A stretch of DNA of 32,000 bases from Candidatus Thalassarchaeaceae archaeon (GTDB taxonomy: Archaea > Thermoplasmatota > Poseidoniia > Poseidoniales > Thalassarchaeaceae), in NCBI GenBank assembly GCA_045568075.1, contig JBJLBP010000001.1:60001-92000 (forward strand), given 5' to 3'. The notes under the pieces were generated by a model. That model made no database searches. It was not told the origin of the DNA and saw only the letters and a list, made by a program, of their open reading frames with translations. Made by a program: the position numbers and the translations under genes. Below, piece after piece: positions 14,986 to 31,829 of this stretch (position 1 is its first letter; each line of letters opens with the position of its first letter).

Positions 14986-15303
14986 ATGGGTCGAGTGATC
15001 AATGCTGGTGATGCTGATTTTGAGGCAGTGACGAAGAGCGATGAATGGGTAATTGTTGACTTCTGGGCCCCATGGTGCGGTCCGTGTAAGATGATCGCGC
15101 CTATGCTTGAGCAAGTCGCTGGGGAGCGCGAAGTTACCGTGGCTAAGGTCAACACCGACGTTAACCCCCTCTCCGCTGGTAAGTTCGGCATTCGAGGTAT
15201 TCCTGCCCTTCTCCTATTCCATAACGGAGAACTCATAGATCGGCAAACTGGTGCAATGCCTAAGCCGATGTTCGACCAATGGTTGAACCGTTACATGAGT
15301 TAA
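14986..15303 (+). CDS. trxA: Thioredoxin
   Basis: The WCGPC active site appears as VDFWAPWCGPCKMIAP, with GIRGIPALLLF downstream. 105 aa. Confidence 0.9.
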   Translation: MGRVINAGDADFEAVTKSDEWVIVDFWAPWCGPCKMIAPMLEQVAGEREVTVAKVNTDVNPLSAGKFGIRGIPALLLFHNGELIDRQTGAMPKPMFDQWLNRYMS

Positions 15304-16850
15304 TCGAGAGAATCACGAAGTTTGCGAGCACGCTCTTCGAGCGGCGCTCCGACTTCTCTCAAGAGACGGGATCGGAGCGCTTCATGCAACCACATGCCAC
15401 TCTCCAGTTCTAGCATGAGGCCACGAGTGACTAGGGCTTCTGGCGGCGTTCCATCGTATCCTGCGGCCGCTGCCAGATTCTCCCATGGAATTGGTCGGTC
15501 AGCAACCGCGAGCAGGGCCAGTAATTCTCTGTGGTCGGATGGAAGAACATCGAGGATCTCCTCGTCAAGGAAGCGTAACCAATCATCGTGCAGAGTTTTG
15601 CCGTAGAGTTCGAGCAATTCCACCGCAAGAGGGTGGCCTCCAGTGGCACGATGAATCTCCTCGGCTGGCGCGTCAGAAGGGAGTTCGATGGATTCGAGCC
15701 AAGCGGCAATCTCCTCGAGAGAGAGGCCGGTGAGGCGGAGTTCGACGACGCGACCGCGAGTATGCACATCGCGTCGGTCATAGAATGCAAGATTGGTTCT
15801 AGAGACCAGTAGCAGACGCATGCTGGTCGATTCGGCGACCTGTAGTAAGGCTCCGAAGAGATAATCTCCGTCAGCGGAGATATTGTGAACGTCATCGATG
15901 ATCACAAGGATTTCACCTGTCGCAGACTCACGCTTACCCTCCTCATCAGTCAAATGTGCGGTCAAACGGCGGCGCAGTAAGTCGATATCGAGGCGGGCCC
16001 CTGGCTTGAGAGGAAGCGCTTCTAGGACTCCATAAGGGTCCTGGCCGTCTTCATCCGAACTGATTTCGAGCCTGTGGAGCAAGCTCGTCGCAATACCCAG
16101 TGTGGTATCCCACGGCTGGCATGGATAGTACATCACCGAAAGGTCGGAACGAGTCTCCAAAGCGTGTGCAAGCCAATGGCTGGACAGAGTTGTCTTCCCA
16201 CAACCTGCGATGCCAGAGATCACTGCCATTGAGGCATCTCCCGAGAACCATTCGTCGAGAGTTCCAACCTCTTCTTCACGCCCGTGAACAGTTCGAGTCT
16301 CGGGTGGCCTTGTGTGATATGTCGAATGCGCTCCGGCCAGTAATTTGAGAGAGCCCGGAGCGAGCTTTTCTTCACTTTCAGTACGCACAATTGCACCAAA
16401 TCGAATGTCGCCGAAGTTCAGCACACCCTCGTGCTGCGCGTGCATAAGCACCTGAAGCAAGGTCAAACCTGTCTCAAGTCGAGCACCGGCCTCATCCGCC
16501 CGAATCTCCAAGAGATTCCCATCGCGCTCGCGCAGCAAAACCTTCGTCTGACGCAACTCAAGTAAGCGACGAGTGACCTGTTCGCGCCCCTCATCGGTCA
16601 ACTGCCAAGTCTTCTGCCGCCTTTCATCGCCGCGAATAACACGTGTGTGTTCGCTAACCATACCATCGAGATCTAAATCACGCATTGTACGCGATACATT
16701 AGGTGGATGAAGGGCACAAATCTCAGCGATTCCCGGCCGAGTCACCTCACGGTTGACGAGATAGTGATCGGCCTGGTGATCCTGCTCCCAAAGGTGCAAT
16801 AGAATTCGATCGGCAACAGCGATGTTCACCTTACTCACAGGTTGCGCCAT
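15300..16850 (-). CDS. Winged-helix DNA-binding domain fused to a STAND (MalT/AP-ATPase-like) P-loop NTPase; putative transcriptional regulator
   Basis: The N-terminal wHTH is GIAEICALHPPNVSRTMRDLDLDGMVSEH..RRQKTWQLTDEGRE. Walker A is ISGIAGCGKTTL and Walker B is ILVIIDDVHN. The STAND GxP-type motif is ATGGHPLAVELL. ATG at 16850 is 4 nt after the peptidase stop. The track's GTG start is at 16871. Confidence 0.65.
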   Translation of the reverse strand: MAQPVSKVNIAVADRILLHLWEQDHQADHYLVNREVTRPGIAEICALHPPNVSRTMRDLDLDGMVSEHTRVIRGDERRQKTWQLTDEGREQVTRRLLELRQTKVLLRERDGNLLEIRADEAGARLETGLTLLQVLMHAQHEGVLNFGDIRFGAIVRTESEEKLAPGSLKLLAGAHSTYHTRPPETRTVHGREEEVGTLDEWFSGDASMAVISGIAGCGKTTLSSHWLAHALETRSDLSVMYYPCQPWDTTLGIATSLLHRLEISSDEDGQDPYGVLEALPLKPGARLDIDLLRRRLTAHLTDEEGKRESATGEILVIIDDVHNISADGDYLFGALLQVAESTSMRLLLVSRTNLAFYDRRDVHTRGRVVELRLTGLSLEEIAAWLESIELPSDAPAEEIHRATGGHPLAVELLELYGKTLHDDWLRFLDEEILDVLPSDHRELLALLAVADRPIPWENLAAAAGYDGTPPEALVTRGLMLELESGMWLHEALRSRLLREVGAPLEERARKLRDSLD

Positions 16851-16854
16851 CGAG

Positions 16855-18705
16855 TCACTCCTCCACGACACACTGAGGATATGGATCGGACATCATTGGC
16901 GGCATGAACAAGTCATCACAGCCTCGCTCTACCGTCGATAAGGAGAGAATGCTCGTCGCCCCAACACCAACCGTCACAGGTTGCATCGAAACGGGGCTAG
17001 GGATGTAGTCCTCTCCAGTCTGAGAGATGATCAAATGGATTCCATCGCCGGCAGGAATCAATACATCCATGCCAAAGAATTCCATCTTGGCATTCACCGT
17101 CTCGCCAGGTCCGAGCACCTCGCCATCCTTGCCACCAGCGTGGAATCTTAGATCCATCACAGCGTGCCCAAGATGCATTCCAGTACTCGCCTGAACCATC
17201 TCAACAAACAGATGACCACTCGTCGAGAAAGCCGACACCGTCGCATCGACATGGAAAGTGGGTGTGCCTACAATCCTCGTATCTTCATCGAAGAAAGGAC
17301 ACTCTATGCGTAGACTCGAAGACGAAGTAATCGTCTCTCCACCACCAATAATAGAACACTGATCCATCCCAACACGTAGCCAATCTTGCTCGGCTGGCGG
17401 ATAAGTCCCCTCGACTCGCCAGCCGCCCATATTGTCCTGAACCTCAGCTATCAGCCGAGGTTGTGGCCCCTCCTCTTTGAGATAGAAATCAAACCACTCG
17501 AGTAGGTCGTCAGCCCAATCCCATCGCAAAGTGAATGGGAATGCTTCACCGCCGCGACCGCTTGAAAGTCCCTGATGCCCACTGAGGCGGTCGGGGTAAT
17601 CGTGCCCCCACTGGCCGTAGAGTCCCTTGACATCGAAGCCAGCGTCTTGCATCATTCGATGGACGGGGAAGGCCATGTGGGGGTCGACATTCCAGTCTTG
17701 CAGTCCGTGGATGATGTAGACCGAGCCAGCGTAGTTTTCCATCGCGCGCGCGAGGAAGTGTCGCTCTTGCCAATAATCAGAGCCCATCCAAGCGAGGTTG
17801 TCGCCAGTGACATACGCAAGCGGTCCAGCATAGTAACCCTCGACATAGCCCTCACAGGCATTCTCGATATCTCCCGAATCACCGTCTAAGCCGAAACTTC
17901 CGTACACGCCGTTGTGCATGATGGCGCCACGGGCTTCCATGCTACCATTGCGCCACATGAGATCCTGTACGCCGATTAATCCAGACATCGGCACGATGGT
18001 CTTGAGATATTCAGAACCCATCGCTGCCGCCTCCCAAGGTGTAGAGCCGTCGTAGGATTTCCCGATGACGCCAACAGCGCCGTTGGAGAAGGGTGCCGTT
18101 CCTAGGTATTCGACGGCTGCGTGGATTCCTTCTTGTTCGTCGAGACCCATGAGGTCCATGCAATGGTTGGAGTTGCCTGTGCCAAAGACGCTGACCTGAG
18201 CGATTCCGAATCCATGAGGTACGAAGTTCTCGATGAGAAAACGACCGAGTCGATTAGCAGGAGTCAGTGCATCGACATCGCCGTCGTCGTAGTAAGGGCC
18301 TATCTCGGCGATGATGGGTACTTTGCATTCTTCTGGAAGTTCTGCCGCATCGTAATCGCAACCTTCGATTTGCGGCAGCCAGAGTCCCAGATGGACTTCA
18401 GCTTCACCGGTTGCGCCAGCGCCTCCGTCAGCCAGAGTGATGGCTGGGACTGAGACGTAGATGGATCGAACTGCATCGATTCCGTGACTGCCGTTACTTG
18501 AGACGCGACTGAATACGTCGCCATTCTCGTAGGTCATCTGCTCGCGATCTTCGACTGGCGGTAGCCAATGGTCTGAATCGTTAGAACCACCACCAATGAC
18601 ATCGTTGCCGAAGCAGCCCGAAAGCATCGGGGCCACGAAAAGCAACACGAGAACTAGGCTCGTTGTGGTGCGAGACACGCGCTTCGCGCGTCTTGGCGCA
18701 CTCAA
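16855..18705 (-). CDS. Secreted S15 family peptidase (Xaa-Pro dipeptidyl-peptidase / CocE-NonD hydrolase), probable lipoprotein
   Basis: The nucleophile motif GxSYxG appears as VIGKSYDGSTPW. An N-terminal signal with a lipobox-like LSGC (RRAKRVSRTTTSLVLVLLFVAPMLSGCFG) is present, as is a C-terminal beta-sandwich-like region. The start is non-ATG (TTG at 18705 or GTG at 18678). Confidence 0.75.
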   Translation of the reverse strand: MSAPRRAKRVSRTTTSLVLVLLFVAPMLSGCFGNDVIGGGSNDSDHWLPPVEDREQMTYENGDVFSRVSSNGSHGIDAVRSIYVSVPAITLADGGAGATGEAEVHLGLWLPQIEGCDYDAAELPEECKVPIIAEIGPYYDDGDVDALTPANRLGRFLIENFVPHGFGIAQVSVFGTGNSNHCMDLMGLDEQEGIHAAVEYLGTAPFSNGAVGVIGKSYDGSTPWEAAAMGSEYLKTIVPMSGLIGVQDLMWRNGSMEARGAIMHNGVYGSFGLDGDSGDIENACEGYVEGYYAGPLAYVTGDNLAWMGSDYWQERHFLARAMENYAGSVYIIHGLQDWNVDPHMAFPVHRMMQDAGFDVKGLYGQWGHDYPDRLSGHQGLSSGRGGEAFPFTLRWDWADDLLEWFDFYLKEEGPQPRLIAEVQDNMGGWRVEGTYPPAEQDWLRVGMDQCSIIGGGETITSSSSLRIECPFFDEDTRIVGTPTFHVDATVSAFSTSGHLFVEMVQASTGMHLGHAVMDLRFHAGGKDGEVLGPGETVNAKMEFFGMDVLIPAGDGIHLIISQTGEDYIPSPVSMQPVTVGVGATSILSLSTVERGCDDLFMPPMMSDPYPQCVVEE

Positions 18706-21481: not shown

Positions 21482-21500
21482 TTGCGCATCTCGCAGCGCA

Positions 21501-21534
21501 CTGGAAATTAACACCTAGAGACCCCTATTTCCAG
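21501..21534. terminator. 8-bp perfect inverted repeat (CTGGAAAT ..18 nt.. ATTTCCAG) just after the beta-propeller gene
   Basis: Read directly from the sequence, 20 nt downstream of the stop at 21479-21481. Function as a terminator is inferred. Confidence 0.3.
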
Positions 21535-21553
21535 TCCACAGTGCCTCATTCGA

Positions 21554-21566
21554 CGAAAGGTTTATG
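21554..21566 (+). promoter_or_regulatory. BRE/TATA-like box (CGAAAGGTTTATG) upstream of the structured purine-rich region
   Basis: A purine-rich BRE-like CGAAAGG is followed by TTTATG. It matches 9 of the first 10 positions of the box 30 nt upstream of the M32 gene ATG (18821-18834). The predicted start is near 21588-21595. Confidence 0.3.
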
Positions 21567-21752
21567 CACCCCTGCCGCACAGACCTAAGTTGCCGCTCTG
21601 GGAGAGTGGTGTGGGGCGCGCTTCGGCGCAAACCGCGGGCCACAGAACCGAACCCCGAACTCGGGGTGGTAGAACCGGAAACCGCAAGGAATCCGGGGAC
21701 GATCGAACCTGGCACTTGGACCAGGGGAGATGCGGTCGAACCGAAGTGGAGA

Positions 21753-21811
21753 GAACTGGACGAAAGGAAAGGGAACTGGACGAAAGGAAAGGGAACTGAA
21801 CTCAAGGAAGG
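21753..21811 (+). repeat. Tandem 20-nt purine-rich repeat: two perfect copies plus one diverged copy
   Basis: GAACTGGACGAAAGGAAAGG occurs at 21753-21772 and again identically at 21773-21792. It is followed by GAACTGAACTCAAGGAAGG at 21793-21811. Confidence 0.85.
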
Positions 21812-21920
21812 GGAAGGAAGCGGAGGGGGAAGCTGGGGAAAACACAACCGCAACGCGCAAGCGAGGAAAACGGAACCGTGCCAGCCAACCAGACCGCGAG
21901 TGCATCGGCGAAGGGGGAGA

Positions 21921-21939
21921 GAACCGGACGAAAGGAAGG
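21921..21939 (+). repeat. Dispersed copy of the purine module (GAACCGGACGAAAGGAAGG)
   Basis: It differs from the tandem unit by one substitution and one missing A. Confidence 0.75.
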
Positions 21940-21983
21940 CGATACGAACCTGAGGCGGATCCACGGGGAACAAAGGAGGAAAA

Positions 21984-22002
21984 GAACCGGACGTAAGGAA
22001 GG
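21984..22002 (+). repeat. Dispersed copy of the purine module (GAACCGGACGTAAGGAAGG)
   Basis: 18 of 19 positions are identical to the copy at 21921-21939. Confidence 0.75.
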
Positions 22003-22333
22003 GGAAAAGAAACCGGAGAGAAACGTGGCGGGAACGAGAGCGCGGAGACGCGTGGAGGACCGGCACTCATTCCAACGAACGAACCGGCGAGAGCCGGGGA
22101 GGGAAGTGGAAACGCAGAAACGGGGAGCGATCCCGGTGGAAGCGGAAACGACAGAAGAGCTCCTTGGAGCGCTCGAGTCATCTACCCGGGGAGAAACCGG
22201 CCTTCGGGCCGGGGACGAACCGGACCCTGCGGAGTCAGCAGGGGGGGATGCTCCCCCATGTGCAGAACCCCCTGCTGCTCCCACCTTGTACCAAAGTACG
22301 GATGCGGCCCATTCCATCAGATTATCAATCATT

Positions 22334-22352
22334 GCGGAGCGATTCGCTCCGC
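22334..22352. terminator. Perfect 8-bp hairpin GCGGAGCG att CGCTCCGC
   Basis: Read directly from the sequence. It lies 77 nt downstream of the fumC stop (minus strand) and at the 3' edge of the candidate RNA (plus strand), so it could terminate either or both. Confidence 0.35.
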
Positions 22353-22428
22353 TGAGCTCAGTTTCGAATGGTCCGAGCGGAAGCCGAATTCATCATTTCG
22401 CAAAGCAAGAGATTTGTACCGTCTAGGT

Positions 22429-24030
22429 TCACTGCTTCGGGCCAATCATTTCCTTAGGCTTGACCCACTGATCGAATTGATCATTGGTGACTAGCCCTAA
22501 TTCGAGAGCTGATTCGCGCAGAGTAGTGCCATTCAGATGCGCGTGCTTAGCAATCTTTGCAGCGTTGTCGTAACCGATGTGATTGTTCAACGCCGTAACT
22601 AACATCAGACTATTCTCGAGGTGCGATGCAATCACACCCTCGTTCGCCTCGAGTCCGTTAACGCACTTGTCGGTAAATGCCCTGCATACATCGGATAGGA
22701 GACGTGTGCTGTGGAGTAAATTGTGGATCATCATCGGCTTGTAGACGTTGAGTTCGAAGTTGCCTTGACTGCCACCGATACTGATTGCAGTGTGGTTCCC
22801 AATCACTTGACAACAGACCATCGTCATGGCTTCGGCTTGTGTTGGATTGACCTTGCCAGGCATGATACTTGACCCTGGTTCGTTGGCTGGAAGAGACAGT
22901 TCTCCGAATCCACAGCGAGGTCCAGACCCCATCCATCGAATGTCATTGGCAATCTTCATCAGGCTCGCAGCAAGCGTGTTTAGTGAGCCTGATACGGCTA
23001 CTATTGCATCGTGTGCTGCGAGTTGAGCAAATTTGTTTTCGGCCGAGACAAATGGTAGACCAACCTTCTCAGCGATACGTTCGGCAACCTTGTCTGCGAA
23101 TTCAAAATGAGTGTTGAGGCCAGTGCCGACCGCAGTTCCACCTAGTGCGAGTTCGAGGAGATCATCCCAAGCAGCCTCTATGCGACGGAGGTCGGCGGCT
23201 ATCATCGAGGTGTAGCCACCGAATTCCTGGCCGAGGGTGAGGGGAACGGCATCCATCAAGTGAGTGCGGCCGATCTTGACAATGTTCTCGAATTCGTCGG
23301 CTTTGGCCGCCAGCGCGTTGTGCAGAAGGCGGATTGCTGGCAGGAGTCGGTTGTGGATTTCTTCTGCAGCTGCGATGTGCATCGCGGTCGGGAATGTATC
23401 ATTGCTTGATTGACCGCGATTGACGTGGTCATTTGGGTGGACTGGAGACTTACTTCCTAGTTCACCACCGGCCATCTCAATGGCTCGGTTGGCGATGACC
23501 TCGTTGGAGTTCATATTGGTCTGTGTGCCGGAACCGGTTTGCCAGACTCTGAGTGGGAAATGCTCGTCCAACGCTCCTGAGATTACCTCGTCGCAGGCGG
23601 CTGAGATGAGTGCTCCAATCTGAGGGTCAAGCTGACCGAGTCCAACATTGGTCTCTGCAGCCGCCTGCTTGAGTATGCCGAAGGCTCGGATTATTGAGGG
23701 ATCCATGGTATCGGTTCCGATGTCGAAATTTATCAGTGAACGAGCGGTTTGGGCTCCGAAATAGCGGTCTGCTGGAACTTCAAGTTCGCCCATTGTGTCC
23801 TTTTCGAGACGAACAGTCCCGGTTGCTCCCGAAGCTGCTCTGGGCTCGCTGGCTCGTTGCGTCGTTGGCACCGTTTGCTCGGTCTCGAGGTTGTTCTGGA
23901 TCATTTTCGCAATCGTCGCTGACCGACCCTGGCCACGACCCTTTCCTACACGCCTATCGAGCTTCTTTGCGAGGTCTTCTGGTATGCTAATACTGATGAT
24001 TCGGCGGTCGCCCGCCCGGTGTTTCGCCAT
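22429..24030 (-). CDS. fumC: Class II fumarate hydratase with an in-frame N-terminal ribbon-helix-helix (CopG/Arc-like) domain
   Basis: The FumC core runs from [30 protein letters not shown] and includes [37 protein letters not shown] and the signature [17 protein letters not shown]. The N-terminal ~45 aa ([40 protein letters not shown]) has a strand-helix-helix RHH pattern and is joined by a ~25-aa low-complexity linker. There is no stop between the two parts. Confidence 0.85.
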
Positions 24031-24040
24031 GTCTATGCTG

Positions 24041-24070
24041 AATAATTACTTATTAATAAAGATAATTATT
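24041..24070 (-). promoter_or_regulatory. fumC promoter: TATA box (TTTATTAATA on the minus strand) bracketed by the 8-bp inverted repeat AATAATTA / TAATTATT
   Basis: AATAATTA is at 24041-24048 and TAATTATT at 24063-24070, with the TATA-like core between them. The TATA box starts about 30 nt upstream of the ATG at 24030. Confidence 0.35.
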
Positions 24071-24087
24071 GGCTGCCTATGCAACGA

Positions 24088-24579
24088 TTATTCATTTATT
24101 CGCTCAACTTTAATGATTTTTTGAGGGTCATAGGGGCGATCTCCTCGAGCGGTATCGCAATTCTCAATCTTGTACACCACTTCCATCCCCTCAATAACCT
24201 CTCCAAACACGGCATGGTTACCATCTAACCAAGGCGTTGGGATGGTCGTAAGGAAGAATTGGGAACCACCTGTGTTTCTACCAGCATTCGCCATCGAGAA
24301 AAGTCCGGGCCTGTCGTGTTTTTTGGCCAAGGCAGATGGCTCACAAGGAATCTTCCAACCGGGGCCTCCTGTCCCGGCTCTGCCGTTGTTGGCGTCTCTC
24401 GAGTGGGGGCAACCACCTTGGATCATGAAGTCCTTGATTACACGGTGAAAGTGAAGACCGTTGTAGAATTCTTCATCCACGAGTTTGAGGAAGTTACCGG
24501 TAGTCTCGGGGCAATCTTCAGTGTAGAGACCTATCGTGATCTCCCCTGCACTCGTCGTCATCTTCACTACAGTAGGCAT
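24088..24579 (-). CDS. ppiB: Peptidyl-prolyl cis-trans isomerase, cyclophilin type
   Basis: Supporting blocks are FYNGLHFHRVIKDFMIQGG, SMANAGRNTGGSQFFLT and HAVFGEVIEGMEVV. Confidence 0.9.
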   Translation of the reverse strand: MPTVVKMTTSAGEITIGLYTEDCPETTGNFLKLVDEEFYNGLHFHRVIKDFMIQGGCPHSRDANNGRAGTGGPGWKIPCEPSALAKKHDRPGLFSMANAGRNTGGSQFFLTTIPTPWLDGNHAVFGEVIEGMEVVYKIENCDTARGDRPYDPQKIIKVERINE

Positions 24580-24667
24580 GACTCAGCCCCAGCGCGCTCG
24601 GCTCAAGAGCATGATGGTGCTCACCTCCGTATTTCTGAAGGGAGTTTGGTGTTGAGGAGGCCGTCAA

Positions 24668-25788: not shown

Positions 25789-28700
25789 ATGGTCGGAGCA
25801 GATGGTCCAGAAGTGGTGGTCGATGAAGCCCGACTTACCCACGAAATGGAGTCATACAGCCTCTGGCTTGACGAGCGAACGGAGGAGGCTTACCGCATCG
25901 CTGGTGAGGCTCGCTCGAAGGGTCTTGATTTCGCTGACGTGGTTGAGATTCCTCGCGCTGCTGACCTTGCCAGTCGCACCGAGAAATTGCTCGAAGATTA
26001 TCTCCGCCCGGAGCCAGATCAGGAACCACTTCGAATCGAGGATGATCTTCGTAAGTTGTTGAGTCGGGTCGACCGCGAGGCGGCTTCGATTCAGATTGCG
26101 GTCGATGTCGCAAAGCGAATGCACGCACTAACCGCAGATGTCCGGCGCTCAATCGATACCGGTTTGCGTGTGGGGCTTGCAGTTCTGACCGAGGCGGTGC
26201 TGGTAGCACCGCTCGAAGGAATCGGAAATGTCAAGATTCTCAACAATGAGGATGGAAGCGAATTTCTCTCAATCGAATTCTGTGGCCCAATCCGTGCCGC
26301 GGGAGGGACTGCGCAGGCTCTCGGTGTGCTGATTGGCGATATGGTCCGCCGTGAGCTCGGGCTTAACCGATACATCCCAACGACGCCTGAAGTAGAGCGC
26401 GTCAAAGAAGAGTTTGGCTTGTATCGAGCCGGTATGCAGTACAAGCCGCCACCCGAGGAGATCGAAATCATCGTCCGCGCCTGTCCTGTGATGATTAACG
26501 GCGAGGCGACTGAACAAATCGAGTGCTCGGGCTACAAAGAAGTCCGCAATATCGAGGGATCGAGGGTCCGCGGTGGTGTGATGCTGGTCATTGGAGAGGG
26601 TCTTTGTCTCAAGGCTCCAAAGATCCAGAAACATACTGAAAGGTTGAAAATTCCTGGTTGGGAATTCATCGCACATTTCGCCTCCAAGGGCAAATCCGAC
26701 GATTCCGAATCCACATTCAAACGCCGAATCATCAAGCGCGATGACCGTTTTCTCGACGATGTCATCGCTGGGCGCCCGGTCTTTGGTGAGCCATGTGAGC
26801 CGGGCGCATTTCGGCTGCGCTATGGGCGCAGCCGAGCCTCAGGTTTAGCGGCGGCAGGGATTAATCCGGTTTCGATGGAAGCGATGGGGTCATTCCTAGC
26901 AATCGGCACTCAGATGAAGACTGAGAGACCGGGGAAAGCAGCCGCAGTGACCCCTTCTGTGGATATCGAAGGGCCATCGGTTCTACTCGATGATGGTACT
27001 TTCAAACGCATCGATACGGCTACAGAATGGCGCGATGTGAGTGACCGAGTCGTCTCGCTGTGGGATAGTGGAGAGTTTCTGGTTGGTTTCGGTGAATTCC
27101 TTGAGAATAACAAGAATCTAGTTCCTTCGCCATACAATCGGGATTGGTGGGCAGCCGACCTTGCGGAGGCGCTAAACCAGCCACAGAAAGTAGATTCACT
27201 CGCGGAAATTTTGGGGTTGAGTCGCGAACAGATGCCTCCTGGCTTAGCATTCAACGGTGCCATCAATCGAGGAGGTGAGCCTGCACTCGAACGTGCTCGT
27301 CGGCGCCGCGATTGGAATCGATACTTGCGCGGGCTCGACTTGACGTGGGAGCAAGTCCGAAGCATCTGCCTCTCCTTTGGAACTGCACCACCGCCCCCAT
27401 TCAATCCGTGGTGGTCAGACCTACCACTCTCCTTCGCACCGCATTTGATTGAGGCTTTGCTATCTTCCAAGGTTGAGAGCCGAGGTTTACGAATCCCTGG
27501 TGTCGTCAAAGGTTGGACTCCAGAACAACACCTCGAGGATGTAGGTCTTGACACTCCTTCGACTGGTGTCTGGCCGCGCTGGACAGAAGTACAGCGTCAC
27601 GGTGTAGTAAAATCCTCACTATTGGTTCTCGGAATCCAGCATCATCACAAGCGCGGCGATATCGTCATTCCCTCTCTCTGGGAGCCTCTAATCGATGGAC
27701 TAGGGCTTGAACTGGATGGATCGAGCATTCGCCAGAGAACAGAGGCTGGCCCGCACGTTACCGATCGAGTAGCACGTATCAGAACAGCAACGAATACCAT
27801 TCGCGAAGAGGATGAGCGCCTAGCCGAAATCGAAAACGCGCGCAATGTCGAACGCATACGTGAGCAAACTTCCGCGCGCCAACGTGGAATGAGTATCGGA
27901 GAGACCGAAGCTGCCGGTGATGAGGCTGCAGCAAAAATCGAAGACCCTGGTGCCCCAAACCCGCAGGAATTGATGGCGGCTCGCCACCTTCTCGACGACC
28001 ATGAGGTCGACCGATCTCTGTGGCTAGCCCGCCGCCTCTCTGAATTGAGATGGGAAGACGCTGTATCATGCCGCGTTGGTTCAAGGATGGGGAGACCAGA
28101 GAAAGCTAGCAGGCGCGAGATGAAACCGCTAGTCCATTCGCTATTCCCAATCGGCGATCATGGAGGTCCACAGCGGCTCCTCGGTCACGCAGCATCGAGA
28201 GGAAGAGTGCGAGTAGACGCTGGTCCACGTATCTGCAAGAAATGCGGGATGGAATCTCCTATGCTTCGCTGCCATAACAGACCAGACCCCGGGGTGGCCG
28301 AGGAGTGCGGTGGCAAAACCAAGCCAAGACCCCTGCGAGGAAACAGAAGACCTCGTAGACTCGGACAGAGAACCAGCATTCCGGTAGCCGCCCTGATGGA
28401 AGTTAAACGCCGCTCACTTGGTCTCGATAGGCTCCCCGAACGCATCAAGGCAGTGAAGGGGCTAATGTCGTATCATCAGACCCCAGAACCACTTGAAAAA
28501 GGCATACTGCGGGGCCGCCATAACATCTCTGTATTCAGGGACGGCACTGCTAGATACGACATGATTGACGTGCCTGTCACCCACTTCAAGCCCTCAGAAA
28601 TCAATACCTCGTGGGAACTCCTCACTAATCTCGGCTACACCCACGATGTCGATGGAAATCCACTGACAAACGATGAACAAATTCTCGAGCTTTATCCTCA

Positions 28701-29757
28701 GGATTTCATCCCATCAACCCTCGCCATCGATCACCTGAAATCCACTTGTGATTACATCGATGAATTGCTCATCCGATTCTACGGCATGGACCCATTCTAC
28801 AAGATTGAGTCAGCCGATGACCTCGTTGGCCATCTCGCAATCGGCCTCGCACCGCACACCTCCGGCGGAGTGCTTTGCCGCATCGTCGGATGGACTGACG
28901 CCTCCGCCGGCTACGCCCATCCACTCTTCCACGCCGCAAAACGTCGCAATTGTGATGGTGATGAAGATAGTATCATGATGCTCATGGATGGATTGTTGAA
29001 TTTCTCCAAATCCATCCTACCTGCAAACCGTGGAGGACGCATGGACGCACCTCTAGTTCTGACCACGCGATTGAACCCCTCTGAGATCGATAAAGAGGCT
29101 CTCAATGTCGACTGCTCGTGGCAATATCCGCGCTCATTCTATGAGGCCACGCGCGAGCAACCGCATCCTTCTGAACTCAAGTCACAAATCGAAATCGTTG
29201 AGCATCGTCTCGGCACAATCGGCGACCTGCGCGGCTATGGTTGGACACACGACTCCGGTGCCCTCGATGCCGGACCTGCAAATTCATCCTACAAGACTCT
29301 GGAGACAATGGTCGACAAAATGAACGCGCAGTTGGCTTTGGGAAGTCTCCTCCGCCCCGTTGACGTCTCAAGGGTTGCCAGTCAGGTCATCGAGTCTCAC
29401 TTCCTGCCTGACCTGCGTGGCAACCTCGTAGCCTTCACTCGGCAGAAAGTGCGCTGCGTACGATGTGGCCATTCGTATCGGCGAATGCCTTTGGCGGGAA
29501 GATGCATACAAAGAAAACAGAATGAAGGAGGCTTGTCGAATGGACGTGATGATGGGTCATCTATGTGTAGTGGGAATGTTGTGTTGACCGTGTCCGAGGG
29601 CTCTGTTCGCAAGTACATCAAAGTCACCCGACACGTCATCGAAAACTACGGTGTCAACCTTTACACACAGCAACGAGTCGACTGGCTTTCTGACAGCGTC
29701 GACTCGCTTTTCAACGATGATACAGTCACAGTAATGACGCTTGGCGACTTCCTTTGA
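25789..29757 (+). CDS. polC: DNA polymerase II (PolD) large subunit DP2
   Basis: The N-terminus YRIAGEARSKGLDFADVVEIPRAADLASRTEKLL is DP2-like. Other blocks are RMGRPEKASRREMKPLVHSLFPIG, the catalytic FHAAKRRNCDGDEDSIMMLMDGLLNFS, and C-terminal VRCVRCGHSYRRMPLAG...VVLTVSEGSVRKY. An alternative start is ATG 25846 (MESYSLWLDE...). Confidence 0.9.
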   Translation: MVGADGPEVVVDEARLTHEMESYSLWLDERTEEAYRIAGEARSKGLDFADVVEIPRAADLASRTEKLLEDYLRPEPDQEPLRIEDDLRKLLSRVDREAASIQIAVDVAKRMHALTADVRRSIDTGLRVGLAVLTEAVLVAPLEGIGNVKILNNEDGSEFLSIEFCGPIRAAGGTAQALGVLIGDMVRRELGLNRYIPTTPEVERVKEEFGLYRAGMQYKPPPEEIEIIVRACPVMINGEATEQIECSGYKEVRNIEGSRVRGGVMLVIGEGLCLKAPKIQKHTERLKIPGWEFIAHFASKGKSDDSESTFKRRIIKRDDRFLDDVIAGRPVFGEPCEPGAFRLRYGRSRASGLAAAGINPVSMEAMGSFLAIGTQMKTERPGKAAAVTPSVDIEGPSVLLDDGTFKRIDTATEWRDVSDRVVSLWDSGEFLVGFGEFLENNKNLVPSPYNRDWWAADLAEALNQPQKVDSLAEILGLSREQMPPGLAFNGAINRGGEPALERARRRRDWNRYLRGLDLTWEQVRSICLSFGTAPPPPFNPWWSDLPLSFAPHLIEALLSSKVESRGLRIPGVVKGWTPEQHLEDVGLDTPSTGVWPRWTEVQRHGVVKSSLLVLGIQHHHKRGDIVIPSLWEPLIDGLGLELDGSSIRQRTEAGPHVTDRVARIRTATNTIREEDERLAEIENARNVERIREQTSARQRGMSIGETEAAGDEAAAKIEDPGAPNPQELMAARHLLDDHEVDRSLWLARRLSELRWEDAVSCRVGSRMGRPEKASRREMKPLVHSLFPIGDHGGPQRLLGHAASRGRVRVDAGPRICKKCGMESPMLRCHNRPDPGVAEECGGKTKPRPLRGNRRPRRLGQRTSIPVAALMEVKRRSLGLDRLPERIKAVKGLMSYHQTPEPLEKGILRGRHNISVFRDGTARYDMIDVPVTHFKPSEINTSWELLTNLGYTHDVDGNPLTNDEQILELYPQDFIPSTLAIDHLKSTCDYIDELLIRFYGMDPFYKIESADDLVGHLAIGLAPHTSGGVLCRIVGWTDASAGYAHPLFHAAKRRNCDGDEDSIMMLMDGLLNFSKSILPANRGGRMDAPLVLTTRLNPSEIDKEALNVDCSWQYPRSFYEATREQPHPSELKSQIEIVEHRLGTIGDLRGYGWTHDSGALDAGPANSSYKTLETMVDKMNAQLALGSLLRPVDVSRVASQVIESHFLPDLRGNLVAFTRQKVRCVRCGHSYRRMPLAGRCIQRKQNEGGLSNGRDDGSSMCSGNVVLTVSEGSVRKYIKVTRHVIENYGVNLYTQQRVDWLSDSVDSLFNDDTVTVMTLGDFL

Positions 29758-29770
29758 CAAATTTCGTGAC

Positions 29771-29810
29771 AGCGTCGTAGTCGCTTGATTTTACGCGAAA
29801 ATACGACGCT
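29771..29810. terminator. Bidirectional hairpin between convergent DP2 and mptE-like genes
   Basis: AGCGTCGTA (29771-29779) pairs with TACGACGCT (29802-29810). An inner TCGC/GCGA pair flanks a T-rich loop (ttgattttac). The element touches the mptE-like stop codon. Confidence 0.45.
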
Positions 29811-30568
29811 CAAACGAGAAAACCGAGGTGTTGTAGCACCTTGGCCATCCACTGTAATTTGACGAGTTTGCGCTCGGGGTCTGTCGCACCCGACCAGGCC
29901 CCAACCAAGTCGGTGCGTGTACCGAGCAATTTGATGCGCTCGCGTGAGACACCAAGTGCGCGAGCGAAGCAAACGGCTCGATCCCCATCGGTGAATCCGC
30001 CCGGATTGTGCATCCCTTCGATAGGTTCGGGCGTCTGATGGGTGAGTACGATAGGCGGTGGAGTTCGTCGCGCGCTCGAGAAAGTGAGTAATTCAGACCA
30101 CTCGGCAGTATTGTCGCCGTGCGCGTGAAGAATAATCGGAATTCCGCGTTTCACTGCAGCCACTGTCCCCTCGCCGCCATCGGCATCACTCACAACACAG
30201 GCCAAACGGGACCAAGCTCGATCGGCCATCGAATCTGGAAGAGTGTCGAGCACGCCGCAAGACCCATCCGCTGCAATCAGGAGAGTATTGCCTGCAAGAA
30301 CTTCCTCAACCTCCTCAATGGTGATTGCGGCACCGAGAATCGCAACATCTGTCTCTCGTAGAACAAGCCGTCTGTGCAACGAAGCCACCGTCTGAACTCG
30401 CCGTGCACGGGCCCAAGATTCAACATCGCAAGACTCGACCTCAGAGAGCAGTGCATGTGCACTCTCGACATCCTCGGTCAGGCCCCAGTCGAAGTGCGCC
30501 CTCACCTCATTTTGCAATTCCAGCAAGCGAACATCCACTGCAGCAAGGTCGGTTGGCTTACTCTGCAT
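29810..30568 (-). CDS. mptE: 6-hydroxymethyl-7,8-dihydropterin pyrophosphokinase, archaeal MptE-like (DUF115)
   Basis: Supporting blocks are LLIAADGSCGVL, VVSDADGG, IILHAHGDN and NPGGFTDGDRAVCFARALGVSRERIKLLG. ATG at 30568 was chosen because the longer track ORF (to 30868) overlaps priL. Confidence 0.65.
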   Translation of the reverse strand: MQSKPTDLAAVDVRLLELQNEVRAHFDWGLTEDVESAHALLSEVESCDVESWARARRVQTVASLHRRLVLRETDVAILGAAITIEEVEEVLAGNTLLIAADGSCGVLDTLPDSMADRAWSRLACVVSDADGGEGTVAAVKRGIPIILHAHGDNTAEWSELLTFSSARRTPPPIVLTHQTPEPIEGMHNPGGFTDGDRAVCFARALGVSRERIKLLGTRTDLVGAWSGATDPERKLVKLQWMAKVLQHLGFLV

Positions 30569-30635
30569 CCAGTGACTCTCCAGTGGAAGGATTCGGTGAG
30601 GCTTGAAATACCCTCTCGATACATTGCCACTCACC

Positions 30636-31829
30636 ATGCCGATGCCGCTCACACCTCCGAGCATCGAAGATGAGTCTGTGCTCGCACGATACCCCTTCCT
30701 ACCGCAGAGCCGTGAATACATCCTCGGCCAACTCAGCGGTAACGGAATCAACGTCGAGGGACTCATTGAGGAACCATGGCTCGAGGATATCCGTCGACGT
30801 GGTAGTCTACGCCTCGTCGAGTCCGTCGTCCACAAGGAAGGAGTCGATTCGGCAACCACCGTCGACATCTCTTCCGACGTCGGTCGGATGACTGAGGCTC
30901 TCTCATTCCTTCACGCCATGCTAGTGGTCTGCGCCTCCTTCGAGGATCGTCTCCTCAATCGCTGGGTGGAGGGAGAAGCCAGTAGGGCCGACCAACTCTT
31001 CGGCATAGATCGGCCCAATTTCGATATCATCGCCCGCACATATCTTTCCGATATCCGCAGCGAGGCGATACCCGGCACGACCGAGATTGTCTATCACGTG
31101 CCGATGGTCGATTTTCTCGAACTCTGTCCAAAGATTACGGGCGGTTATTGGCGCTTGATCAACCGCCCGGTCAAAGCCGGCTGGGTCAGGATGGATCCGG
31201 CTAGCGGAGAAACCAGTCAACAGCGGACTGCGCGCCTACTCAAGGAGCGCGTCCGCCGATCTCTGACTGAGGATTGTGTCGATAGAATGGCGAAGATGGA
31301 CGATGCATTCGCCGGACTCTTCGCGGATCCGGTTGACCGCATTCTCGGCTTACTCTCAGAACGAGTCACAGCCGAGATGCCGATGACAGCGGCCGTCCGC
31401 GAGGATTGGCCGCCTTGCTTCGAATCAGCCGTTGCCGAACTAGCCCAAGGAATCAACGTAAATCACACAGGTCGGCTTTTCCTCGCTGCAATGTCAAGAG
31501 CTATGCTGCACACACCCGAAGTCACGTGCTCATTCTTCGAGAATGCCCCCGACTACAATGCGGAGACTACTTCCTACCAAGTTGGCCACGTCTATGAGCA
31601 TCAATACACACCTCACGGATGCTCGTCTCTCAAGACAGGTGCTCGCTGTCCTGTGAGCCCTGGAGACGATCGTTTGTGCGACCAGGAATGGATGAATCAC
31701 CCTCTCAAATATCTGCGAGCGAAGCAGCGGCGGCGCTATCAGGAAGAGAGTCTCAATGAAGCCGCCGACGAATCGCCAGAACGCACCGAAGGTGCGTCGG
31801 AAACGAACGAAACGGACGATTCTTCATAA
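30636..31829 (+). CDS. priL: DNA primase large subunit PriL
   Basis: The N-terminus contains ARYPFLPQSREYI. The C-terminal Fe-S domain has WPPCFESAV, HTGRLFLAAM, PDYNAETTSYQVGHVYEHQYTPHGCSSLKTGARCPV and four Cys. ATG at 30636 is ~30 nt downstream of the TATA-like TTGAAATA (30603-30610). The track's TTG start is at 30603. Confidence 0.8.
   Translation: MPMPLTPPSIEDESVLARYPFLPQSREYILGQLSGNGINVEGLIEEPWLEDIRRRGSLRLVESVVHKEGVDSATTVDISSDVGRMTEALSFLHAMLVVCASFEDRLLNRWVEGEASRADQLFGIDRPNFDIIARTYLSDIRSEAIPGTTEIVYHVPMVDFLELCPKITGGYWRLINRPVKAGWVRMDPASGETSQQRTARLLKERVRRSLTEDCVDRMAKMDDAFAGLFADPVDRILGLLSERVTAEMPMTAAVREDWPPCFESAVAELAQGINVNHTGRLFLAAMSRAMLHTPEVTCSFFENAPDYNAETTSYQVGHVYEHQYTPHGCSSLKTGARCPVSPGDDRLCDQEWMNHPLKYLRAKQRRRYQEESLNEAADESPERTEGASETNETDDSS

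Follow-up and report, generated by a model that had tools for sequence, protein, structure and literature searches.

A ribbon-helix-helix module fused in frame to class II fumarase in the archaeal order Poseidoniales: a candidate DNA-binding autorepressor

The direct coupling of a metabolic enzyme to gene regulation has its classic example in PutA of Escherichia coli and Salmonella, a trigger enzyme which combines a ribbon-helix-helix (RHH) domain with proline dehydrogenase and P5C dehydrogenase and which is, to our knowledge, the sole enzyme fused to an RHH domain. The same principle, an enzyme carrying its own DNA-binding domain and repressing the genes of its pathway, is realized in BirA and NadR, which differ in their HTH fold and in the ligand-dependent dimerisation that constitutes the known switch. 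RHH domains are also found in NikR, joined to a tetramerising nickel-binding regulatory domain, and in small free-standing regulators of 45-90 aa such as SvtR of SIRV1, CopG-type proteins and ParD. The canonical class II fumarases FumC/CitG are without a DNA-binding domain, and in their reported DNA-damage-response role (PMC5711358, PMC6068284) the link to DNA is indirect, by localisation and metabolite signalling. Full-text searches of PMC and bioRxiv retrieved no description of an RHH-fumarase fusion, in agreement with the initial annotation of the DNA analysed here, to which no such protein was known either.

Such a fusion is encoded in the window, by which the whole analysed stretch of 32,000 nucleotides from a Candidatus Thalassarchaeaceae archaeon is meant. 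The protein of 533 aa is composed of three parts, an N-terminal module assigned to the RHH type (residues 1-49), a linker (50-72) and class II fumarase (73-533), with the following coding features:

22429..24030 (-): complete RHH-linker-FumC open reading frame, 533 aa plus stop (open reading frame list and domain matches)
24007..24030 (-): basic N-terminal arm MAKHRAGD, residues 1-8, invariant or nearly so, disordered in the monomer prediction
23983..24006 (-): putative ribbon strand RRIISISI, residues 9-16 (conservation pattern, RHH_1 match from residue 12, NikR alignment)
23947..23982 (-): predicted helix A, residues 17-28 (AF2 helix 18-28 in both models)
23926..23946 (-): Gly-rich loop GKGRGQG, residues 29-35, ending in the invariant G35-R36-S37
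23884..23925 (-): predicted helix B, residues 36-49 (AF2 36-52 for the N-terminus alone, 36-49 at full length)
23815..23883 (-): hypervariable and probably disordered linker, residues 50-72 (alignment, codon information, AF2 coil)
22432..23814 (-): class II fumarase body, residues 73-533 (TIGR00979, Lyase_1, FumaraseC_C, confident AF2 core)
22843..22875 (-): intact catalytic SS-loop signature, residues 386-396 (read from the translation)

The open reading frame starts with the ATG at 24030, which is preceded at a distance of seven codons by an in-frame TAA, the interval being free of other start codons. That an RHH domain is fused in frame to class II fumarase, with no stop codon between the two parts, had been proposed in the initial annotation and is borne out by the reading frame, which is uninterrupted from the N-terminal segment into fumarase, by profile matches and by orthologous loci. 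Nearly all of the closest 120 relatives listed have a length of 529-545 aa and a coverage of 99-100%. The RHH module is encoded in 276 species-representative genomes, and all examined loci (80/80, from both Poseidoniales families) run in frame into fumarase, barring assembly errors and contig ends, so that the extension, for which a survey of orthologues had been suggested, is kept across the order without stop or frameshift. As the same module of 48 residues precedes fumarase in frame at every examined related locus, the fusion is far beyond chance. Codon-position information in codons 1-48 (1.52/1.78/0.52 bits at positions 1/2/3) demonstrates purifying selection as protein and rejects conservation of the 5' segment at the nucleotide rather than the protein level, while the linker codons (0.43/0.49/0.11 bits) are without purifying selection. 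The fusion is real, conserved in both families of the Poseidoniales (Marine Group II archaea) and maintained by purifying selection at the protein level. Fumarases from outside the Poseidoniales (65-71% identical, several of them bacterial) align to the fumarase part of the query only, and a protein search with a divergent variant, itself also within the Poseidoniales, returned mostly partial fumarases and no informative outgroup for the fusion.

The internal start candidates pointed out previously, an ATG at M43 and a GTG at V55, are both present; the alignment shows Met or Leu at codon 43, whose Met is thus not conserved (position-1 information 0.99 bits). Some gene callers truncate the RHH domain or lengthen it. 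The linker, first described as rich in Thr/Ala/Ser/Pro, fits residues 50-72, which are equally rich in Glu/Gln and hypervariable in the alignment; it has acquired a 10-residue insertion in one relative (P0102) and is a coil in the full-length AF2 model, with pLDDT <50 for residues 47-58. RHH module, linker and fumarase are almost certainly translated as a single protein.

The assignment of residues 1-49 to the RHH fold is derived from the conservation pattern, profile comparisons and structure prediction. In the N-terminal arm, M1, H4, R5 and G7 are invariant and A2, K3 and D8 at least 90% conserved, and in the putative strand the invariant or polar residues R9, I11, S13 and S15 alternate with variable hydrophobic residues at positions 12, 14 and 16. 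In loop and helix B, G29, K30, G31, G35, R36, S37 and T39 are invariant among 77 sequences. A G-x-S/T/N turn at the start of helix B is a hallmark of RHH domains, and the invariant G35-R36-S37 fits this turn. Pfam RHH_1 matches residues 12-44 with 20.1 bits in the full protein, just below the gathering score of 20.5, and with 21.7-21.9 bits, above this cut-off, in the isolated N-terminus. The profile search that had been suggested earlier has thus given an RHH signal, since RHH_1, the sole Pfam family matched, recognizes 76/77 orthologous N-termini (E<=0.01; best E 2.3e-5) and four NikR N-terminal models match the same region weakly (residues 12-57, E 0.008-0.12). The protein is no member of the NikR family, as the best model reaches 16.2 bits versus a cut-off of 83 and the C-terminal part is fumarase; what resembles NikR is the RHH module only. 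With hhalign, the NikR RHH domain aligns over 41 columns (E 1.4e-3), the strand being matched to VTITL and GRSATI to NRSEAI, while neither the PutA RHH sequence used (E 0.34 over 6 columns) nor that of CopG gave a meaningful match. By these comparisons the module appears to stand nearer to RHH domains of the NikR/CopG type than to that of PutA. A sequence-profile search of the PDB with the N-terminal alignment returned no RHH protein and a spurious match to RNase PH (E 0.74).

The module is essentially specific to fumarase, since a HMMER profile search against 1.84 billion representatives gave 43 matches, almost all of them fragments or chimeras of RHH-fumarase, and no other enzyme carrying the module; apart from fumarases, its sole relatives there are two weakly matching stand-alone proteins of RHH-like type, 58 and 85 aa long (E 6.5e-4 and 3e-5, respectively). 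Structure prediction of the N-terminus alone (AF2, pLDDT 69) gives an extended segment 9-16 followed by helices 18-28 and 36-52. In the full-length model, helices 18-28 and 36-49 are found, the RHH segment has a pLDDT <55, the fumarase core is confident and the placement of the RHH segment relative to this core is not. The pLDDT of the N-terminal arm falls below 50 for residues 1-5 in the first and 1-16 in the second model. DSSP assigns no strand to residues 9-16 in either AF2 monomer model; the strand of RHH domains forms only in the dimer. Three of four Foldseek matches in the PDB are RHH proteins (SvtR, ParD2 and ParD), none of them significant (E 7-10), with SvtR as the best match (TM 0.63, rmsd 2.1 over 44 columns). 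The order of strand, helix and helix, the alternating strand residues and the G-x-S/T/N turn expected of an RHH domain are found in the AF2 monomer and the alignment taken together. The signal is weak but consistent, and residues 1-49 very probably adopt the RHH fold.

The second part of the protein is recognized as fumarase by the equivalog model TIGR00979 with 755.7 bits versus a cut-off of 664.75, residues 73-530 corresponding to model positions 1-458, and by the Pfam domains Lyase_1 (residues 81-411, E 1.7e-110) and FumaraseC_C (477-529, E 7.2e-25). Fumarase is favoured over aspartase because the aspartase model TIGR00839 reaches 488 bits on the same protein, below its cut-off of 681. Residues 386-396, the fumarase/aspartase signature (GSSxMPxKxN loop), are invariant across 17 aligned sequences, and by its motifs the class II fumarase part of the fusion appears catalytically intact.

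A potential target of the RHH module can be looked for in the short region upstream of the gene, where GC drops to 0.43-0.455 in 200-nt windows and the following features are located:

24031..24087 (-): AT-rich 57-nt spacer from the cyclophilin stop codon to the fumC ATG, containing the entire promoter
24053..24060 (-): TATA-like octamer TTTATTAA, 30 nt upstream of the ATG
24042..24052 (-): AT-rich 11-nt extension TAAGTAATTAT between TATA box and start codon, candidate operator
24041..24070 (strand not applicable): 8-nt inverted repeat AATAATTA / TAATTATT flanking the TATA box (arms 24041-24048 and 24063-24070)

In 72/80 scored sites the exact octamer TTTATTAA precedes the ATG by 29-32 nt, with flanks of ~0 bits; one of the remaining sites has it at 43 nt and seven carry one mismatch. 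It occurs 79 times in 493 kb of related DNA, 73 of these occurrences being fumC promoters. No promoter-like all-A/T octamer was found at -33..-27 of other long open reading frames in the examined loci, the few all-A/T octamers at other frames being located inside coding sequence. A scan for sigma-70 promoters and intrinsic terminators found none, as expected for an archaeon. Because of the invariant TATA-like box ~30 nt upstream of the ATG, we strongly infer that the fumC mRNA is leaderless and begins at the ATG of the RHH module; the geometry of the promoter places the start of transcription and translation where the upstream beginning of the frame had initially been put. The 11-nt extension has the order-wide consensus TAACTAATTAA, with 0.7-1.4 bits per position and flanks near 0. 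The 17-18-mer of this promoter element is confined to fumC, both within the window, where 0 matches are expected by chance, and within the 493 kb of related DNA. The region 24041..24070 includes the internal palindromes TTATTAATAA and TAATTA, and the left arm of the inverted repeat is conserved in the closest sub-clade only. The 11-nt extension is the best operator candidate.

Taken together, these features can be integrated into a model in which a single polypeptide would join an intact class II fumarase, by way of a flexible linker of ~23 residues, to a DNA-binding module of the RHH type. Since class II fumarases assemble into homotetramers and the functional unit of RHH domains is the dimer, each enzyme tetramer would be expected to carry two flexibly tethered RHH dimers, much as in NikR. 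The (near-)invariant residues, K3, H4, R5, R9 and R10 of the basic arm, I11, S13 and S15 of the strand and G35-R36-S37, would fit DNA contact, as they occupy positions where exposure and contact with DNA are expected. That the fusion protein binds DNA is likely. Sequence-specific binding by the RHH module would turn the enzyme into a repressor of transcription, and the AT-rich element over its own TATA box and the 11 nt up to the start would be the target, giving negative autoregulation as in PutA; binding to its own promoter is, taken by itself, put forward tentatively. Modulation of binding by fumarate or malate would create a true trigger enzyme, a function which the initial annotation had called possible and which is speculative and at present rather unlikely. 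The best explanation overall is that RHH-fumarase acts as a DNA-binding autorepressor, with a probability of roughly 0.45.

Alternatively, the RHH module might anchor the enzyme on the nucleoid, where fumarate or malate would be made or used locally, with no role as a transcription regulator. Such a tethered fumarase would be an archaeal, hard-wired equivalent of what class II fumarase does in the DNA-damage response of Bacillus subtilis, yeast and human cells: in B. subtilis, DNA damage reportedly induces the enzyme, which co-localises with the bacterial DNA, and in eukaryotes an action at double-strand breaks is reported (PMC5711358, PMC6068284). The conserved basic arm would suit a general affinity for DNA, and the long flexible linker would allow the tethered enzyme to keep working. 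Equally, no regulon emerged among the matches listed from a metagenome scan for the 18-nt element before leaderless genes other than fumC; these matches were taken up by a promoter, identical by chance, of a Bacteroides-like outer-membrane receptor gene of gut metagenomes, and the only one of archaeal type was another RHH-fumarase. However, near-invariant strand residues point to one conserved target sequence, fumarase's own promoter possesses an unusual conserved AT-rich element and linkage of fumC to DNA-repair genes was not seen in the inspected loci. RHH domains, moreover, are typically binders of specific operators. Tethering is considered improbable.

Somewhat less probable still is that RHH-fumarase regulates other genes, for example of the TCA cycle or C4-dicarboxylate metabolism, without autoregulation, the fumC element being a strong TATA box with a proximal promoter element. 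Promoters in these genomes normally have a conserved core near -30; the cyclophilin promoter, analysed as a control, has an order-wide conserved core of ~12 nt 28-29 nt upstream of its ATG, without such an extension, and conservation alone consequently does not prove an operator. Protein and operator were not found to covary across the compared loci: in many Poseidoniaceae the extension is not kept and replaced by TTTATTAAACGCC... with the RHH contact residues unchanged, while a variant with R9S (L196) retains the canonical promoter element, so that there is no clean protein-DNA covariation. On the other hand, neither a further copy of the motif nor an alternative candidate site was seen in the 493 kb, which is a weak test as this DNA comprises fumC neighbourhoods only.

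There is also a small chance that nucleic acid is not bound by the N-terminal module at all and that the module serves dimerisation or assembly, cross-linking fumarase tetramers or recruiting a partner. The scores of the RHH assignment are weak, and the RHH parts of some antitoxins mediate protein contacts, two of the Foldseek matches being ParD antitoxins. Yet conservation is highest in the basic arm, at the exposed positions of the strand and in the G-R-S turn and not in a hydrophobic core alone, and class II fumarase tetramerises unaided. Finally, an artefact of annotation or assembly, with a small RHH gene and fumC joined in error or a start at M43 or near residue 73, is very improbable and the version with two separate genes or a downstream start effectively refuted, for although one gene call (P0012, 491 aa) begins at M43, the frame is uninterrupted in independent assemblies, M43 is Leu in many species, purifying selection starts exactly at codon 1 and the TATA box precedes this codon by 29-32 nt with unconserved sequence further upstream.

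The fusion would be a second, independent case of an RHH enzyme, archaeal and on a core enzyme of the TCA cycle, and it is present in both families of an uncultured order of very high abundance in surface ocean waters. The RHH domain has been overlooked by annotation, as named records give plain 'class II fumarate hydratase' and precomputed Pfam lists two fumarase domains only. One protein, a 57-nt promoter and two candidate ligands offer a testable entry to gene regulation in organisms without a genetic system. The locus equally bears on why class II fumarases repeatedly gain DNA-related roles, here by direct attachment of a domain of DNA-binding type. That the fumarase is physically and sequence-specifically coupled to DNA, as a metabolite-sensing transcription factor or as a hard-wired fumarase-DNA link, is a rather unlikely proposition; if true, it would be the first directly DNA-binding fumarase, conserved across very abundant surface-ocean archaea, and would report the state of the TCA cycle (fumarate/malate) directly to promoters or hard-wire the connection to DNA for which the damage response of bacteria and eukaryotes gives indirect indications only.

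Among the known systems, the small RHH regulators, with SvtR as the best structural match, differ from the module, which has been found fused to fumarase only and possesses a longer Gly-rich loop between the helices. NikR, the closest RHH protein by sequence with weak scores, shares the expected tetrameric core with two RHH dimers, and the 8-nt inverted arms of the window, 14 nt apart, resemble its split palindromic operator; all NikR models, however, stay well short of their cut-offs (16 bits versus 83-175), the C-terminal part is an enzyme and not a nickel sensor, and a linker of ~23 residues replaces direct joining. The architecture of PutA had been invoked in the initial annotation, and the combination of enzyme and RHH domain in one polypeptide is borne out at the level of sequence; as hhalign favours NikR (E=1.4e-3) and gives nothing to PutA, PutA is an architectural analogue and not a relative. 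The RHH modules are without detectable sequence relationship, the enzyme partners are unrelated, PutA is bacterial whereas RHH-fumarase is archaeal with a TATA-type promoter, and the PutA switch by flavin reduction and subsequent membrane binding has no counterpart in the cofactor-free fumarase. Like PutA, however, RHH-fumarase combines an N-terminal RHH module of ~45-50 residues, a flexible linker and a central metabolic enzyme in one polypeptide, with its own promoter as the target, here as a candidate.

An in-frame TAA stands seven codons upstream of the fumC ATG with no start codon to be read between the two, so 24030 is the first possible start of the frame, from which one polypeptide runs through a ribbon-helix-helix (RHH)-like module and a variable linker into an intact fumarase. 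Residues 73-530 are aligned end to end by the NCBIfam equivalog TIGR00979 (class II fumarate hydratase) with 755.7 bits at a cut-off of 664.75 bits, which identifies the enzyme part, as judged by family models, as a bona fide FumC.

22429..24030, minus strand: fumC (RHH-linker-fumarase) ORF, 533 aa, ATG start
Residues 81-411 of the 533-aa protein: Pfam match to Lyase_1
Residues 477-529 of the 533-aa protein: Pfam match to FumaraseC_C

The first 72 residues lie outside every fumarase model. Residues 12-44 are matched by Pfam RHH_1 (ribbon-helix-helix, CopG family) with 20.1 bits in the full protein, below the gathering score of 20.5 bits, and with 21.7 bits, above it, when the N-terminus is scanned alone; the same residues are also weakly matched by four NikR N-terminal models (E 0.008-0.12). 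ORF calling and family models on the window have recovered all features of the initial annotation where it had placed them, including the RHH signal in front of the fumarase. In public records the protein is named a plain class II fumarate hydratase and the precomputed Pfam lists hold the two fumarase domains only, so that the RHH is invisible in current annotation.

Among the 120 closest database relatives listed (74-99% identical), nearly all have 529-545 aa with a query coverage of 99-100%, and the named records are Candidatus Thalassarchaeum, Thalassarchaeaceae or Thermoplasmatota. In an alignment of 17 relatives, residues 1-48 hardly vary, residues 50-72 form a hypervariable stretch with a 10-residue insertion in one relative, and conservation is back from R74 on. 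Scanning the N-terminal alignment against one genome per GTDB species identified 276 loci encoding the RHH module, the best 80 of which span both Poseidoniales families, Thalassarchaeaceae and Poseidoniaceae/Poseidonia. The unbroken frame from RHH into fumarase, claimed for the window, continues in all of these 80 loci, and the extension, proposed for a check in archaeal orthologues, is hence kept across the order. An automatic check for a complete ORF of 519-538 aa including the fumarase signature was passed by 74/80 loci; L012 and L060 start with MARHR, outside the search pattern, and read through into the fumarase on inspection, L040 is full length with an ambiguous base inside the signature, L045 and L051 have frameshifts or ambiguous-base runs, and L047 and L053 are ended by contig ends. 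In locus L073 (NZEQ01000005.1), both RHH-fumarase and promoter are almost the same as in Poseidonia sp. L070; the contig, deposited under the bacterial MAG name Verrucomicrobiales bacterium ARS100, is probably archaeal and mis-binned.

In 77 distinct sequences at species level, the information at codon positions 1, 2 and 3 is 1.52, 1.78 and 0.52 bits for codons 1-48 and 0.43, 0.49 and 0.11 bits for the linker codons. As first and second positions are fixed and third positions free, selection is on the protein and not on an RNA or DNA element, and sequence comparison demonstrates that the RHH-linker-fumarase arrangement is conserved and selected as a protein across the order. The internal ATG at M43, earlier considered as a start candidate, does exist as a codon but is not conserved, being replaced by Leu in many species in the alignment and the codon statistics. 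The N-termini of the public calls P0012, P0032, P0063 and P0116 disagree, with the RHH lost in one and the others reaching 3-11 residues beyond the conserved Met; the call starting at M43 (P0012, 491 aa) was rejected as a gene-calling artefact, as were several calls extending upstream of the conserved Met.

The N-terminal module very probably has an RHH fold. In a Pfam scan of the N-termini of 77 species, RHH_1 was the sole family matched (76/77 at E<=0.01, best 2.3e-5). With hhalign, the 77-sequence profile matched the RHH domain of E. coli NikR at E 1.4e-3 over 41 columns, pairing the strand IS-I-S-I with VTITL and GRSATI with NRSEAI, and CopG marginally; no RHH protein came up in a profile search against PDB sequences. 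From the N-terminal alignment, AF2 predicts two helices, 18-28 and 36-52, joined by a loop and preceded by an extended segment (pLDDT 69), and three of the four Foldseek PDB matches of this model are RHH proteins (SvtR, ParD2, ParD), led by SvtR of virus SIRV1 with TM 0.63 and an rmsd of 2.1 Å over 44 columns, though all E-values are 7-10 and, for a domain this short, not significant. A monomer model does not allow the ribbon to form; full-length AF2 gives low confidence for the first 60 residues and no confident position for them relative to the enzyme. The conservation pattern fits the fold, as the core side of the strand (residues 12, 14, 16) consists of variable hydrophobics, the groove side has R9, R10, I11 and S15 invariant and S13 near-invariant, and the invariant G35-R36-S37 at the start of helix B matches the G-x-S/T/N turn, which contacts phosphate in RHH proteins. 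The basic arm MAKHRAGD equals the fold in its degree of conservation.

Searched by HMMER with the module profile, 1.84 billion cluster representatives gave 43 matches only, nearly all of which proved on inspection to be RHH-fumarase, either fragmentary or in chimeric assemblies; apart from two weak matches to stand-alone RHH-like proteins (58 and 85 aa), this particular module is known from nowhere else in that set. A divergent RHH version (MGKHNVGGSRIVSVSIPEDVAQELDRWTG...) is likewise fused to fumarase and likewise from Thalassarchaeaceae/Poseidoniales, and non-Poseidoniales fumarases (65-71% identical, several bacterial) match the query in the fumarase part only. With module matches near-confined to RHH-fumarase and outside fumarases devoid of the module, the fusion seems to have arisen once, at or before the base of Poseidoniales. 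Within Thalassarchaeaceae, the divergent RHH-fumarase lineage of L201 (2971-3819) and L202 (MGKHNVGGSRIVSVSIPEDVAQELDRWTGGGKNMGRSAWIVQAIR...) has altered arm, strand and helix B residues, and an inserted 89-aa coiled-coil-like ORF separates its fumC from the cyclophilin gene.

Apart from one block, the 120 nt in front of the fumC ATG are unrelated between clades, and the preceding gene differs too. When sites are anchored on this block, 72 of the 80 scored have the exact octamer TTTATTAA at 29-32 nt from the A of the ATG, one further site has it at 43 nt and seven have one mismatch; positions further upstream carry ~0-0.4 bits. An archaeal TATA box is centred ~26-27 nt before the transcription start, so that transcription would begin at or within a few nt of the ATG. 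Such a start strongly argues for a leaderless fumC mRNA, necessarily translated from the first RHH codon.

Directly after the octamer, 11 positions are conserved at 0.7-1.4 bits, with background reached again before the ATG.

24042-24052: candidate-operator extension, window sequence TAAGTAATTAT, consensus TAACTAATTAA
24041-24048 and 24063-24070: 8-nt inverted arms flanking the TATA box
24603-24609, minus strand: cyclophilin promoter element, upstream of the cyclophilin (Pro_isomerase) gene 24088-24579

Of 79 copies of the octamer in 493 kb of related DNA, 73 are at fumC promoters; the combined 17-18-mer is present in 34/80 loci, each with a single copy that invariably sits at the fumC promoter; in the window it occurs once even with 3 mismatches allowed (0 expected by chance). 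At -33..-27, all other long ORFs in these loci are without a promoter-like all-A/T octamer, such octamers being few and lying within coding sequence, and long A/T-only runs in intergenic DNA are nearly all immediately upstream of fumC. Within the element, the centres of two short palindromes, ATTAAT and TAATTA, are ~9 bp apart. As a control, the cyclophilin gene has a conserved ~12-nt element, A..CT[CA]TTG[AG]AC, which 55 of 60 scorable promoters carry 28-29 nt before the ATG, the other five having a one-base variant. This non-AT-rich element is conserved order-wide, so that conservation at -30 is ordinary promoter conservation in these genomes; it suggests that the cyclophilin gene is leaderless as well and that resemblance to a classical TATA box is not required of promoters in these archaea. 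The peculiarity of fumC is the AT-only sequence, prolonged by 11 nt toward the start; the control has no such extension. In a metagenome scan (L083-L197) for the 18-nt element TTTATTAATAACTAATTA, the matches listed are dominated by a region, identical by chance, upstream of an outer-membrane receptor-like gene (MKQKSSFFKALG... / MKQKVTFMLLAM...) that bears a signal peptide and is abundant in human-gut metagenome contigs.

Many archaeal repressors work by blocking TBP/TFB or polymerase recruitment. The fumarase tetramer would display two RHH dimers on ~23-residue tethers, as in NikR; these could plausibly occupy the AT-rich site and block such recruitment, whereby RHH-fumarase would bind and repress its own promoter and enzyme level might be set by negative feedback. 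On the other hand, in many Poseidoniaceae the extension is replaced by TTTATTAAACGCC... with the RHH contact residues unchanged, and L196 combines an N8/S9 variant with the canonical element, both of which count against a simple operator. The most divergent RHH lineage, L201/L202, has a different element (TTTAATAAC ATCATC CAATTG...) and gives, as a single lineage, the only hint of protein-promoter co-change. We therefore hold autoregulation at a probability of about 0.4-0.45. Among its rivals is a nucleoid-tethered fumarase, which would connect with the part in DNA damage described for class II fumarases (PMC5711358, PMC6068284); another is a regulator of other genes. A non-DNA assembly module would have to accommodate the conserved basic arm and groove side. 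An annotation artefact is effectively excluded.

Between the fumC stop and the next gene, ~900 nt (window about 21,500-22,420) hold no credible ORF, with T at ~6% of the plus strand, an AT skew up to 0.78 and a 20-nt tandem repeat at 21753-21815. All Thalassarchaeaceae loci (L001-L021, L023-L025, L029, L034-L036, L041-L046, L060, L071 and others) have this block in the same position, and it is absent from Poseidonia. It has long near-identical nucleotide stretches with 1-2-nt indels and hairpins with pairing kept through compensatory changes, looped on the window plus strand by UUCG, GAAA, GCAA and UCCG (UUCG/GNRA tetraloops); Rfam gave no match even at E<=1, and thermodynamic folding z-scores are unremarkable or weak. 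The block may give rise to a large, unclassified non-coding RNA, with transcription convergent to that of fumC. DNA-replication genes lie nearby, along with a possibly Orc1/Cdc6-like ATPase:

25789-29757, plus strand: DNA polymerase D large subunit DP2
30603-31829, plus strand: primase large subunit
15300-16871, minus strand: HTH + AAA ATPase

The ORF 29810-30868 has no Pfam match, and neighbouring M32 and S15 peptidases fit the protein-degrading life style ascribed to Marine Group II.

Full-text literature searches gave no description of an RHH-fumarase or any DNA-binding fumarase fusion, in line with the initial annotation, and the one fumarase fusion mentioned in the main text of a 2024 survey of archaeal fusion proteins is that of the class I subunits. 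RHH-fumarase is predicted to be an enzyme with a fused RHH regulator domain, its architecture solid and order-wide in a very abundant archaeal group, its regulatory function putative. In both sequence and expected quaternary logic the NikR RHH comes nearest, although RHH-fumarase falls outside the NikR family. The proposed likeness to PutA holds for the architecture but not for the RHH, which is unrelated by sequence (no hhalign match). A metabolite switch by fumarate or malate, if true, would make RHH-fumarase a true trigger enzyme like PutA.
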